This document shows positions 11,341 through 38,480 of a stretch of 64,000 bases of DNA, in pieces. This stretch comes from Pristiophorus japonicus (lineage: Eukaryota): contig NC_091995.1 in NCBI RefSeq assembly GCF_044704955.1, forward strand, positions 13,702,001-13,766,000. The letters run 5' to 3'. The position numbers were made by a program, and so were the translations under genes. The notes under the pieces were generated by a model. It did not search any database and was not told where the DNA came from. It saw only the letters and a program-made list of their open reading frames with translations. Position 1 is the first letter of the stretch; every line of letters starts with the position of its first letter.

Positions 11341-11919
11341 TGCCTACGGCGAGGTGTTGGCCGCAAACTCGCCGCCGAGTAGCGCCATTGATGGTAGGTG
11401 GCCCCAGACTTGGTTGGAGGGCAGCATTAGGAAGGTCAACTGTCCGCTGGGGTTCTGAGGGATGTTTCGGAAAGTTTCTTCCAAGGTTAAAGATTTCCCC
11501 AAAGGTTTCCAAGTTGTTTTAAAAATTTAGGAGTTTAAAAGTATTTCCAAATATATTTTTAAAAAGTTACACAGGTTTAATAAATAGATTAAAAGTTTGT
11601 TAAAAGTTGATTAAAAAAAATCTAAAATGTAAATCAAGTTGTTAGTGTTCACCGCTGGCGACCTCGGGCAGGTTGAGGTGACCCGGAGTACGAGGCTAGG
11701 TCGGGTCCTCTGGCTAAAGGGACCTGGAGTACGAGGTTGGGTCAGGCCTGGGATTGCAGCGGGCCGTGAGTGGGGAGGCCATTCGGCCTGGGATTGCAGC
11801 GGGCCAAGGCTTTCGGGCCCCCGGCGGCGTCCAGGCATTCGGGCCCCCTTTGGAGATGACTGGACTACTACATCCCTACAGTGCTCCAGGTGTGGTCTAG
11901 CCAGGACTTTGTACATCAT

Positions 11920-12886
11920 GGGAGTCCCTTCGGCCAGCCGACCCGGCCCAACGACACAATCCGGGTTCCTTCGGCCAGCCGGTCCAGCCCAACGACACAC
12001 TCCAGGTCCCTTCGGCCAGCCGGCCCAGCCCAATGACACACTCTGGGTCCCTTCGGCCAGCCGGCCCAGCCCAACGACACATTCTGGGTCCCTTCGGCCA
12101 GCCAGCCCAGCCCAACGACACACTCCAGGTCCCTTCGGCCAGCCGGCCCGGCCCAACGACACAATCCGGGTTCCTTCGGCCAGCCGGTCCAGCCCAACGA
12201 CACACTCCAGGTCCCTTCGGCCAGCCGGCCCGGCCCAACGACACAATCCGGGTTCCTTCGGCCAGCCGGTCCAGCCCAACGACACACTCCGGGTCCCTTC
12301 GGCCAGCCAGCCCAGCCCAACGACACACTCCAGGTCCCTTCGGCCAGCCGGCCCGGCCCAACGACACAATCCGGGTTCCTTCGGCCAGCCGAACGACACA
12401 CTCCAGGTCCCTTCGGCCAGCCGGCCCGGCCCAACGACACAATCCGGGTTCCTTCGGCCAGCCGGTCCAGCCCAACGACACACTCCGGGTCCCTTCGGCC
12501 AGCCGGCCCAGCCCAACGATACACTCCGGGTCCCTTCGGCCAGCCGGCCCAGCCCAACGACACACTCTGGGTCCCTTCGGCCAGCCGGCCCAGCCCAACG
12601 ACACACTCCGGGTCTCTTCGGCCAGCCAGCCCAGTCCAACGACACACTCCGGGTCCCTTCGGCCAGCCGGCCCAGCCCAACGACACACTCCGGGTCTCTT
12701 CGGCCAGCCGGCCCAGCCCAACGACACACTCTGGGTCCCTTCGGCCAGCCGGCCCAGCCCAACGACACACTCCGGGTCTCTTCGGCCAGCCGGCCAAGTC
12801 CAACGACACACTCTGGGTCCCTTCGGCCAGCCGGCCCAGTCCAACGACACACACTGGGTCCCTTCAGCCAGCCAGCCCAGCCCAAT
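11920..12886. repeat. GC-rich 41-bp minisatellite (~23 copies)
   Basis: Unit GGGTCCCTTCGGCCAGCCGGCCCAGCCCAACGACACACTCC; 41-nt period read at 12481 to 12522. Confidence 0.95.
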
Positions 12887-13971
12887 GTCTTTAAGCAGTA
12901 GATATACAGCGAAATAATCTGGGTAGAGACATAATCTCTATTGTTCCTTTCGATCCTGGCTCTATCTACAAATTATTAATAAATGTTCAAGATCTTTATA
13001 GTTCTCTAATTATGCACACTGATTCATTATGGCATGACAAGTGTTATTGTGAACAATACCCCAGAAATGAGATAGCTCCGACAATTCCAGATGGTCAATC
13101 TGTTTACCCATTAATCATACAACTAATCATCTCAGTCCCCATTATTTCGACCCTCTGGTCCATCCAGCATGCCCCATACAACTATGATACCTTGTGCAAC
13201 ACAATATTTACACTCCATTTCACTGTAAACCATGTGATCTCCCGGTAGAGGCAAAATACAGATAAAAAGCTAGGCCAATTTGGGAAATAAAAACTCTGGG
13301 ATATTTCTCTCTGACCCTCTTTCGGCACCTGAAACTAGTCAAGGACACAGTTATCCAAGAGATGCATAGTGTACATGACTTCAATCCATATAAAATGAAA
13401 CCGTTTGTAACATAACATGTTGTAACTACTCTAGTCATCGTATTTGAATCCAGTGATGAAAGATATGACTCTAGGAAACACGGAGATTGTGCCCCAAACT
13501 ATGACACCAATAGTGACCATTAAAAAAAAATCAATTTCCTCCAAAGCCTCAGTACTAGTATCAGAGGCTAACCTATACCTCGATATCTCCCAGTGCTACT
13601 TCCTGAGATGAAAGGTCTCAGCTAATTCGTCTTGGTCTGTGAGACTGGGCACTTGATCAGATCATAGGGCTTGATGTGAGCTAACCCATGTCTGTAGAAA
13701 ACTATAGCAGACCTGAGTTGGTTCTTCTGTTGTAGGAGTGGCTGTTTCCAGGATTTGCTCACCTATCTGTGGCCTTCCTTGCTACTCTGACCACTGTGGC
13801 CATATTGTGTAGGCAAAGGACTTTCCTGGTAATTTAAGTTACAATGAGGAGTGGCAATGAGTATCCTAGCTTGGTTTGTCTTGTGCTACTCAAAAATGCA
13901 GACCAAAGTTGCTGGTGGAGCTAAAGGTGTCAAGTGCTGCCAGTTTAACGGTCCGGTCACTTGACCCATAC

Positions 13972-17095: not shown

Positions 17096-17581
17096 AAGGG
17101 AAATCTGGATCATCTTTTCAAATTGAACAAACGGACGCAGGTGAAAACTGGGAGAGGCAAATTTAGAACCGTCAGGAAATTCCTCGGTGATGAACACATA
17201 GATTAAAAAAAAACTGATTTAGCAACATTACACGCTGCGATGGGACAAGATACTTCCTAAGCGAATGGACTAAAATGGTTTGAATAATCGTCTTCATCTA
17301 TCAATTTTGCCAAATACATTGGAGCGAGAAAAAAAAACCATTTCAATTCGTAGCCATTTCTCAACACACGGCGGGTTAGTGAAACTCTTGGATGGGGACG
17401 AAGTTAAAGGTTCCAGAAGCTGGAACTAGAAACGTTCTCACCTCCCCCCAACTGGGAATCAAAAGAATGCATTATATATAAAGACATGGGAAATGGCAAG
17501 CGGCCGGGCCTGACTGCTTCCTGAACCACTTCAATAGAAATAAACATACAACTTCATATATCGTGTCATAATTTCCCCCTT

Positions 17582-17587
17582 TTTATT
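17582..17587 (-). terminator. Candidate poly(A) signal downstream of the H1-like gene
   Basis: AATAAA on the minus strand about 100 nt past the stop codon, followed by a GU/U-rich tract (GTTGTATGTTTATTT). Confidence 0.4.
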
Positions 17588-17688
17588 AAATCAAACTTTT
17601 AACACGTATGTATGGTTACTACATTTGTGCATATCTGCTACATTTTAGGTTAACATAGTGCGACTTATTACGGCCCCTTCGTCACGAA

Positions 17689-18384
17689 TTAGCGGCCCTG
17701 AAAAGAGCCAGTGTTATGATCTACCAACTCTTCCGATTTAACGCTGGCCGGCGGGGTCTGTGCGGCTGGAGTTTCAGTCGGGCGCCTGGCCACCCTCCGC
17801 ACTTTGGTCACTTTCCACCTGGCTCCCTTACGCAAAACGACGGGTCTTCTCCCGCGCCGGCTCTTCGTCGCCACCTTACGCTTCTTCCTGGCTGCCGCCG
17901 GTCGCTTGGGCTTCTTGGCCGGTCTCTTGACCGCCGCCCTTCTCCTGCGGGAGGCCTGGCCGGCCGGCTGCGACTCTTTGGCCGCCGCCACTTCCACATT
18001 ATTGCCGAGCTTGACCGAGGCGATCGCGTCTCCGGCCGTCCGCACCATCGAACACTTGGCCACCAGACCCCGAACGGCCCGGCTGAGGCGCGAGTCGTGG
18101 CGTGTCACCTTGCAACCACTGGCCGACAGCATCTTCTTCATGGTGGCCATCGATAGGCCGCGGCGCTGCCGGGTGGCCGCCACCGCCTTCATGATCTGCT
18201 CGGCCACCGTGCAGCCGAACTTCTTGTGGCGGTACGGCCGTCGCTTCTTCTTCACCTCCCCCGCAATGTTCAGCGACCCCACCTCGTCCGGGGAAGACAG
18301 CGGCAGAACAGGAGCAACCGGAGGAGGCAAGGTTGCCGGAGCAGACTGGTCCCTTCCCATCCCGTCCTGTTCGGTATCTAGCAT
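17689..18384 (-). CDS. H1: Divergent linker histone H1-like / protamine-like basic protein (231 aa)
   Basis: TVAEQIMKAVAATRQRRGLSMATMKKMLSASGCKVTRHDSRLSRAVRGLVAKCSMVRTAG...SVKL aligns by eye with the H1 winged helix ([60 protein letters not shown]...SFKL). It has a basic C-tail, is intronless, GC-rich, and carries a histone stem-loop. Confidence 0.85.
   Translation of the reverse strand: MLDTEQDGMGRDQSAPATLPPPVAPVLPLSSPDEVGSLNIAGEVKKKRRPYRHKKFGCTVAEQIMKAVAATRQRRGLSMATMKKMLSASGCKVTRHDSRLSRAVRGLVAKCSMVRTAGDAIASVKLGNNVEVAAAKESQPAGQASRRRRAAVKRPAKKPKRPAAARKKRKVATKSRRGRRPVVLRKGARWKVTKVRRVARRPTETPAAQTPPASVKSEELVDHNTGSFQGR
17694..17709 (-). terminator. Histone 3' stem-loop located inside the H1-like ORF
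   Basis: GGCTCTTTTCAGGGCC, followed by GCTAA and a purine-rich GAAGGGGC (HDE-like). Confidence 0.85.
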
Positions 18385-18489
18385 CAGATCGGCGCACTTG
18401 GTTATAGCTCTTCACTCTCGCTGCTGCTTCTTCTCCTTCACTCCGTTCCCGGGCAGCCGCGGCCGCTCTGTGCCCCCGGCCACCAGAGC

Positions 18490-18810
18490 ATTGCCTCTTA
18501 AAGCCGCAGCGCGGACTCGTTCGACTCAATCCGACGCGCAGGCCACGCCCACTCAAGCCCCGCCCACTTGCCCCACCCACGCAAGCCCCGCCCACTTACC
18601 TCACAGAGGCCACGCCCACTTGCCCCACCCACGCAAGCCCCGCCCACTTACCTCACAGAGGCCACGCCAGCTCGCCCCGCCCACTTGCCCCACCACACAG
18701 GCCCCGCCCACTTGTCTCACACAGGCCCCGCCAGCTCGCCCCGCCCACCCACACAGGCCCCGCCCACATGCCCCACCCACACAGGCCCTGTCCACTTGCC
18801 TCACACATAA
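18490..18810 (-). promoter_or_regulatory. H1-like promoter with a tandem array of GC boxes
   Basis: TATA-like CTTTAAGA near 18500, then about ten CCCCGCCC/CCACGCCC (Sp/KLF) motifs in a degenerate tandem repeat. Confidence 0.6.
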
Positions 18811-20511: not shown

Positions 20512-20847
<336 letters not shown>

Positions 20848-36706: not shown

Positions 36707-37087
36707 ATGCCTGAAGCGGCGTCCAAGGGCATCGCTCCTAAAAAGGGGCCAAAGAAAGCGGCCACCAAAAAACGGGCCAAAGGCGAGAAGAAGCGCAGGA
36801 AGACCAGGAAACAGAGCTACGGGATCTACATTTACAAAGTGCTGAAGCAGGTCCACCCTGACACGGGTATATCGTCTTCGGCCATGAGTGTCATCAACTC
36901 GTTCGTCAACGACATCTTCGAACGAATCGCCTGCGAGGCCTCCCGCCTGATCCGCTACAGCCGGCGGCAGACCATCTCCTCCCGGGAGATCCAAACCACC
37001 GTCCGCCTGCTGCTGCCGGGGGAGCTGGCCAAGCACGCCGTCTCCGAAGGGACGAAAGCGGTCACCAAATACACCAGCTGCAAATAA
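36707..37087 (+). CDS. H2B: Histone H2B, divergent variant (126 aa, two Cys)
   Basis: [15 protein letters not shown]...[12 protein letters not shown]...[31 protein letters not shown]; intact ORF, promoter and stem-loop. Confidence 0.97.

Positions 37088-38063: not shown

Positions 38064-38480
<417 letters not shown>

Follow-up and report, generated by a model that had tools for sequence, protein, structure and literature searches.

An arginine-enriched linker histone H1 of Pristiophorus japonicus with a histone-type stem-loop inside its reading frame

H1t, H1T2 and HILS1 are divergent, Arg-enriched H1s that act around chromatin condensation, and erythrocyte H5 is also Arg-enriched. Protamine-like (PL) proteins contain about 35-50 mol% of Lys and Arg together; protamines reach 30% Arg or more, are small and have no globular domain. 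The dogfish S1/S2 proteins and the scylliorhinine protamines are short (under about 90 aa), Arg-containing proteins of spermiogenesis without a winged helix. The precursor of protamines is proposed in PMC11607694 to have been of the replication-independent H1/H5 type. At the RNA level, trimming leaves mature histone mRNA with 2-3 nt past the stem-loop (PMC4604434, in excerpt). In differentiated tissue, cluster histone genes such as H1C turn to poly(A) signals beyond the stem-loop, and in round spermatids this is true of one H2A (excerpts of PMC5100578). Passages from PMC9526256 and PMC554098 describe H2AJ as polyadenylated only, and the former also lists H1t as a histone cluster member.

The gene considered here comes from the window, i.e. 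the whole 64,000-nucleotide stretch of Pristiophorus japonicus DNA that was analysed, which is LINE-rich and contains four histone genes: H1, H4, H2B and H3. The ORF list and its translations place at 17689..18384 of the minus strand an intronless ORF for a 231-aa, Arg-enriched variant of linker histone H1. It is a single exon with a GC3 of 76%, and database protein P0001 corresponds to this frame from Met9 onward. The H4 gene (20512-20823, minus strand) is located 2.1 kb away, and the genes of H2B (36707-37087) and H3 (38070-38480), both on the plus strand, about 18-20 kb away. Two traits of replication-dependent genes, absence of introns and clustering with core histone genes, are therefore present for H1. 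No H2A was found among the ATG-initiated ORFs of at least 90 aa in the window, and four stem-loop matches occur in its entire length.

The four histone genes are scattered between LINE copies. The H4 protein differs from the canonical one by Val to Ile at 66 and Ala to Ser at 70 (Met = 1), and its gene carries a canonical stem-loop flanked by TAA at +3 to +5. H3 is H3.2-like, with Gln to His at 126 (Met = 1), a canonical stem-loop, and AATAAA beyond the stop, at +166 and +224. The H2B gene has an intact ORF and a canonical stem-loop, and codes for a divergent protein. A comparison by hand with chicken H2B over residues 33-126 gives about 17 differences, among them two Cys and, in the H-Y-N-K-R region, Arg gains; judging by its sequence, it is possibly a germ-line variant. 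A long tandem repeat array at 11918-12917 (plus strand), in which two open frames of about 300 codons overlap, is probably a minisatellite.

Stem-loop, stop codon and flanking signals of the H1 gene

A histone-type stem-loop of six pairs, one of them G-U, is present in the H1 gene at 17694-17709 (minus strand, as are all features of this gene given below). The original prediction had assumed histone-type 3' processing, and such an element does exist, but its location is inside the ORF and not in the 3' UTR. The stop codon (17689..17691) falls at +3 to +5 past the stem, a candidate purine-rich HDE-like element, recognized by motif score, lies at +15 (17671..17679), and an AATAAA poly(A) signal is found 102 nt past the stop (17582..17587). 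Measured from the end of the stop codon, the stem of H1 begins 21 nt upstream, and those of H4, H2B and H3 begin 31, 39 and 58 nt downstream, respectively; a canonical stem-loop in the 3' UTR is thus what H1 lacks. The 5' flank of its stem-loop is devoid of the AAA present in the three neighbouring genes, and the hairpin has -6.9 kcal/mol versus -7.8 to -7.9 for the neighbours. The Rfam model Histone3 (RF00032) found the other three stem-loops of the window and left that of H1 unscored, even at E 5. The HDE-like element scores 7 of 9 against an HDE core, and those of the neighbours 5, 6.5 and 8. The near-canonical H3 of the window carries an AATAAA about 100-170 nt downstream as well, thus the hexamer alone is weak proof of polyadenylation.

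Histone-type processing is unlikely to yield a working message from this gene, because trimming would cut into the stop codon. The assumption that the gene still uses histone-type 3' processing is therefore unsupported, with the stop at +3 to +5 falling in the trimmed region and a poly(A) signal downstream. Under the original prediction, U7/SLBP would still process the message at the stem-loop, and translation would use a transcript ending at or just past the stop. This would be in agreement with the retention of all six stem pairs and of the HDE-like element, and cleavage five nt past the stem would leave the stop whole at the very end. However, trimming to 2-3 nt takes the stop off (PMC4604434, in excerpt), the flanks are non-canonical and without an Rfam match, and ribosomes would have to traverse the SLBP site. 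We consider such a mode of expression very unlikely.

The overlap of ORF and stem-loop is unlikely to be an assembly slip, because one contig of run X1 is identical to 17579-18156, with neither mismatch nor gap, and spans stem-loop, stop and AATAAA. An assembly error as the source of the overlap was rejected, since this contig bridges it and the ends of three orthologues agree. Run X1 is small (164 Mb of contigs), the kind of data is not on record, and it may come from the source sample. Its second contig corresponds to 18158-18428 with one difference, at 18329, where A to G in X1 changes Leu19 to Ser, which could represent an allele or another individual. The run has no coverage at 17100-17578 and 18429-18560, and the contigs end just beyond AATAAA and 44 nt before the ATG. 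This transcript-like look is not counted here toward expression or polyadenylation, and the holes between contigs prove nothing.

Upstream of the ORF, a TATA-like TTTAAG (18497..18502; motif match only) occurs at -118 from the ATG, and a tandem array with nine matches to GC-box motifs extends over 18542..18804. CCAAT and H1 boxes, searched for as motifs, were found nowhere within 450 nt upstream of H1. The GC-box array is minisatellite-like, with periods of 15-64 and a 52-nt unit at 93% identity.

Composition of the protein and its relatives in cartilaginous fishes

The protein begins with the acidic, Pro-rich N-terminal extension noted earlier (residues 1-43; 18256..18384), which contains seven Asp/Glu, one Arg and no Lys and is similar in orthologues. 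It is followed by a basic signature motif ending in Cys58 (residues 44-58; 18211..18255), nearly invariant in elasmobranch orthologues, and by an H15 winged-helix globular domain (residues 60-126; 18007..18207). The latter was confirmed by the Pfam check that had been suggested, in which PF00538 (Linker_histone) scored 27.4 bits versus a cut-off of 22.4 over residues 60-126, and by a PDB search, with chicken GH1 as the best solved match (E 1.4e-10). The wing appears degenerate in this copy, and a structure model of low confidence (mean pLDDT 55, 10-sequence alignment) has three helices and zero wing strands. The basic tail (residues 143-203; 17776..17958) contains 18 Arg and 11 Lys, i.e. 29 basic residues in 61, with no acidic residue and no S/T-P-x-K/R motif. 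Acidic ends flank the basic part of the protein on both sides.

The previous hand count was exact, the protein having 31 Arg, 24 Lys, three Cys (positions 58, 91 and 111) and one Trp (position 190). All the motifs named with it were found: RQRRG at 72-76, RHDSRLSRAVRG at 95-106, SRRRR at 145-149 and SRRGRR at 175-180. Trp190 sits in the tail, outside the winged helix. Arg amounts to 13% and Lys+Arg to 24% (55 of 231), the median of Lys+Arg in the subfamily described below being 24% too. The Lys-to-Arg shift is a swap without gain of charge, because total Lys+Arg is 24%. Regarding the characterization of the protein as an Arg- and Cys-rich H1, Arg enrichment holds and Cys richness is overstated, as three Cys in 231 residues make 1.3%. 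Neither is Cys richness a family trait, the only conserved Cys being Cys58: it is common to 11 of the 14 subfamily members, Cys91 to two and Cys111 to one, and in the window copy the last two stand in for a conserved Tyr and Gly. Cys-rich protamine character was rejected on the basis of per-member Cys counts in all 14.

A separate problem is whether the protein might be a true PL-I or protamine precursor, which stays in mature sperm chromatin or is cleaved into it. The winged helix, the Arg clusters and the single Trp would be compatible with this idea. Of the features expected of PL-I, a winged helix with basic tails is present, but Lys+Arg at 24% is below the threshold of about 35-50 mol%; a protein of 231 aa with 13% Arg and an H15 domain is also unlike a P-type protamine. 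Moreover, the Trp is in the tail, acidic ends flank the basic part, and the origin is from a replication-dependent H1. H1-derived protamine precursors do occur in clams, tunicates, spiders and liverwort (PMC11607694, in part), and still we find it highly improbable that this protein is one of them. The idea of an H1-to-protamine intermediate by descent is unsupported as well, given the levels of Arg and Lys+Arg and a domain nearest to replication-dependent H1, and is further opposed by the subfamily staying full-length H1 from Callorhinchus to skates. Because the proposed protamine precursor is of the replication-independent H1/H5 type, the window H1 looks like a parallel Lys-to-Arg shift rather than a missing link.

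The named close relatives of the window H1 are all cartilaginous fishes. Members were gathered by homology searches, name look-ups and a cluster-representative profile search (best 150 of 642 matches), and those called here subfamily A comprise one full-length protein in each of 13 elasmobranch species and in Callorhinchus, 14 in total with the window one: Heptranchias, Heterodontus, two Chiloscyllium, Scyliorhinus torazame (annotated from an internal Met), Pristis, three skates, Narcine, Hypanus, Mobula and Callorhinchus being the others. Databases name them merely 'histone H1-like'. Accessions of orthologues include XP_043534339, GCC39257, XP_067865052, XP_067829783, XP_051899490, XP_055486377, GCB78245 and XP_007882588. 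A nearly invariant basic motif of the KKKRRPYRHKKFGC type precedes the globular domain across the subfamily, which forms a clade of 14 rows with support of 97/84 (98/94 without Callorhinchus). Arg/(Arg+Lys) is 0.45-0.73 in its members; in the tail, the median is 0.61 in the 14 members versus 0.07 in 61 other H1 matches, these being the ones among 120 that qualified by a basic tail of at least 50 residues. Judged from these proportions, the Arg shift is not a matter of chance. The original prediction of a conserved H1 with a Lys-to-Arg shift, for which pseudogenised orthologues were to be the refuting observation, is upheld, as the orthologues are mostly intact. Subfamily A did not surface for Carcharodon, Scyliorhinus canicula, Rhincodon or Stegostoma in word- or cluster-limited searches, which does not imply absence, and a metagenome scan gave 314 pattern matches with no relative among them.

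Divergence of the window copy exceeds that of most orthologues, its globular-domain identity to them being 53-71% versus 64-91% for Pristis. Within a genuine family, this copy might be decaying or under relaxed constraint, its extra Cys and broken wing being a result of drift. Private changes at near-invariant sites (Tyr91Cys, Gly111Cys, Ser121Ile and a one-residue wing deletion) point in that direction, as do the long branch, the odd composition, the wing absent from the model, and the presence in other species of a degenerate protein (Narcine P0013) and of an apparently frame-shifted C-terminus (Mobula). On the other hand, all 231 codons are intact with high GC3, the N-terminal motif is retained and the Pfam score exceeds the cut-off. 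The Chiloscyllium and catshark copies are as diverged as that of the window, and the wingless model is a low-confidence one built on 10 sequences. Decay of the window copy thus appears quite improbable.

Descent of the globular domain and of the C-terminal extension

Scored with the family profile, chicken GH1 and human H1.1-H1.4 reach 76-90 bits, whereas H1.0/H5 reach 27-32 bits and H1x 15 bits. Because the first scores are far above the others, the family is, on profile evidence, derived from the replication-dependent H1 class; assignment to the H1.0/H5 replacement subtype failed, the domain being nearer to replication-dependent H1. The Arg-rich proteins, 34 rows when sister groups are included, have Arg at position 75 in 33 cases, where other matches mostly have Ser. 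Helix-3 Lys101 is changed to Asn or Ser in most of them, and wing Lys117 of the canonical QTKG motif is found in none of the 34 versus 105 of the 120 other matches. Since these two lysines, main dyad-binding residues of H5, are lost in most or all of the Arg-rich rows, nucleosome binding is likely to be altered in the family.

Besides subfamily A, 20 further rows fall in sister groups B-E and are mostly Arg-enriched; the source was looked up for 14 of them and is chondrichthyan in each case. Cartilaginous fishes thus have at least four further groups of H1 paralogues, Arg-enriched for the most part (P0020, P0022, P0024, P0026-P0029, P0032, P0036, P0037, P0041, P0058, P0105, P0134 and unnamed neighbours), and in none of these B-E paralogues is a stem-loop peptide the C-terminal end. 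Several groups occur within one species: A, B and C in Heterodontus, A, B and E in Heptranchias, and A and E in Callorhinchus. Co-occurring groups have neighbouring accession numbers and equal-sized contigs, those of Callorhinchus being on a 64,591-base contig, which suggests that the groups form a linked cluster predating the chimaera-elasmobranch split.

In a tree of 76 columns with unsettled bootstrap, whose rows were chosen after a quick tree, 35 rows (the 34 Arg-rich ones and one alligator H1) were split from 23 mostly Lys-rich H1s at 94/92. The free tree grouped 33 of the 34 chondrichthyan Arg-rich rows at 93/87, and a constraint uniting all 34 was not rejected (p-AU 0.34). A single clade of chondrichthyan Arg-rich H1s is neither rejected nor established by these sequences, and a shared Lys-to-Arg drift could pull Arg-rich rows together. 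Arg-rich H1s are also found beyond chondrichthyans, in alligator (P0108) and flounder (P0030). P0108 is a short, multicopy protein on a long branch beside the chondrichthyan rows; its placement could reflect a link to amniote spermatid H1s or attraction by composition. The searches returned no H1t, H1T2 or HILS1 sequence.

The C-terminal extension of the window H1, residues 217-231 with the stop (17689..17736), would be a former 3' UTR that is now translated. The Heptranchias orthologue stops at the position of residue 217, which is an ordinary one, the catshark has no extension, and Callorhinchus ends near the ordinary position. Skates and sawfish have S-V-x-x-x-x-L-V-D in common with the window protein and lack the stem-loop peptide, which in batoid extensions read in other frames was never better than two mismatches. 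The final hexapeptide is G-S-F-Q-G-R in the window protein, G-S-S-Q-S-L in both Chiloscyllium and G-S-S-L-S-H in Heterodontus. These four of the 14 members end in a hexapeptide that a stem-loop could encode, compared with none of 149 other H1 matches, a control set that leaves out the degenerate P0013. Aligned in frame to the stem-loop consensus, with the stop directly after, three have no mismatch and one has a single mismatch, for which the chance per protein is about 1e-5 and 4e-4, respectively. The peptide occurs internally, never terminally, in seven of the 149 controls, as expected of frame-shifted gene models, and read-through is common in predicted gene models. In 10 of the 14 members the stem-loop peptide is not C-terminal; for all species other than that of the window, the state of stem-loop and poly(A) signal is deduced from protein ends and not from DNA.

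A reading frame that lost its stop would naturally end in the stem-loop flank, with selection not required, because the flank of the window H4 likewise has TAA at +3 to +5. The simplest history inferred from these sequences would be acquisition of the extension in an early elasmobranch, followed by decay or reversal in some lines. By eye, the C-terminus of Mobula P0012 looks like the extension of Hypanus P0011 read in another frame, and this difference suggests weak constraint on the residues of the extension. Narcine has P0013 as an extra copy.

Proposed expression and relation to known systems

One plausible scenario, to which we give about an even chance, is that the gene codes for a polyadenylated, replication-independent, Arg-enriched H1 compacting chromatin in non-dividing cells, most probably spermatocytes or spermatids. 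An early elasmobranch copy would have lost its stop, so that the frame read the old 3' UTR up to the TAA in the stem-loop flank. Once cleaved past the stem-loop and trimmed to 2-3 nt, the transcript would have lost its stop and be a non-stop message, and full protein could be made only from read-through, polyadenylated messages. Since the form ending at the stem-loop would carry no stop, transcripts reading on to the poly(A) signal are the most likely source of the protein. Dependence on poly(A) would uncouple the gene from S phase, and its product might serve as a stage-specific linker histone, similarly to mammalian H1t, H1T2 and HILS1, acting before protamines, with a loosened grip on the nucleosome dyad and an Arg tail binding DNA tightly. 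A role in spermatids is plausible by analogy, although as a cell type they are a best guess at about even odds, with erythrocytes and other differentiated cells as the main rival.

According to that rival explanation, the same polyadenylated Arg-rich H1 would act in somatic terminal differentiation (e.g. in nucleated erythrocytes, like avian H5) or in oocytes and embryos. Polyadenylated forms of cluster histones were reported in many differentiated tissues (PMC5100578, in excerpt), nucleated erythrocytes use H5, which is a replication-independent linker histone (PMC11607694, in part), and a GC-box promoter would fit broad expression. However, the globular domain is not of the H1.0/H5 type, and divergent paralogue groups with fast tail turnover resemble the pattern of germ-line chromatin proteins. 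Somatic or early embryonic use is possible, though in our opinion rather unlikely.

A bolder variant of the spermatid scenario would make the in-frame stem-loop a working gate. In dividing cells the transcript would be cut at its own stop and undergo non-stop decay, whereas post-replicative germ cells would reach the poly(A) site and make the protein; SLBP/U7 histone-type processing might thus serve to turn off a chromatin-compacting H1, itself part of an undescribed chondrichthyan Arg-rich radiation. The residues that vary among the four sharks (Phe/Ser, Gly/Ser and Arg/Leu/His) are at sites where the stem-loop consensus is itself degenerate, a pattern that selection at the RNA level would produce. 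We regard the gate as unlikely.

Expression supplements of PMC11406177 gave no match, and the accessible parts of PMC4574566, PMC13052469 and PMC11979771 added nothing on the window H1 gene. No account of the subfamily, or of a stem-loop absorbed into a histone ORF, turned up in searches of open-licence text; older biochemistry of shark sperm proteins (e.g. Saperas 1997) and the 2023 catshark proteome may bear on the matter. If the proposed reading is true, cartilaginous fishes hold old, apparently undescribed Arg-enriched H1s from the replication-dependent class, and a vertebrate Lys-to-Arg shift that is datable can be tested against the H1-to-protamine hypothesis. It would also offer a concrete route to replication independence for a cluster histone, in which loss of a stop codon swallows the stem-loop. 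Species appear to differ in stage, with an early stop in some, an in-frame stem-loop in others and a lost stem-loop in further ones, and the route is therefore testable with public genomes and testis RNA.

Compared with human H1.1-H1.4 and chicken GH1, which are its best structural matches, the window H1 is alike in being intronless, in its place among H4, H2B and H3 genes, and in having a stem-loop and an HDE-like element. It differs from replication-dependent H1 by an Arg-enriched tail without SPKK-type motifs, loss of the wing Lys, the stem-loop inside the ORF, and the absence of CCAAT and H1 boxes. The presence of a poly(A) signal beyond the stem-loop is shared with HIST1H1C and HIST2H2AA3 (PMC5100578, in excerpt) and H2AX (PMC9526256, in excerpt); in those genes, as far as these excerpts go, the stem-loop is 3' of the stop and both mRNA forms are coding, whereas the window H1's stem-loop form would be without a stop. 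H2AJ is similarly intronless, derived from the replication-dependent class and located beside an H4 gene (PMC9526256 and PMC554098, in part). It has no stem-loop at all, and the window H1 keeps one in its coding sequence. PL-I and the H1-derived protamine precursors resemble the window H1 in combining a winged helix with an Arg-enriched basic region, but the latter is much less basic and nearest to replication-dependent H1, not to the H1/H5 type. The dogfish S1/S2 proteins and scylliorhinines are Arg-containing chondrichthyan proteins as well, set apart by their descriptions. By description there is a parallel with H1t (H1.6), H1T2 (H1.7) and HILS1 (H1.9), likewise divergent Arg-enriched H1s, and by this analogy the window H1 may work like a replacement or spermatid linker histone.
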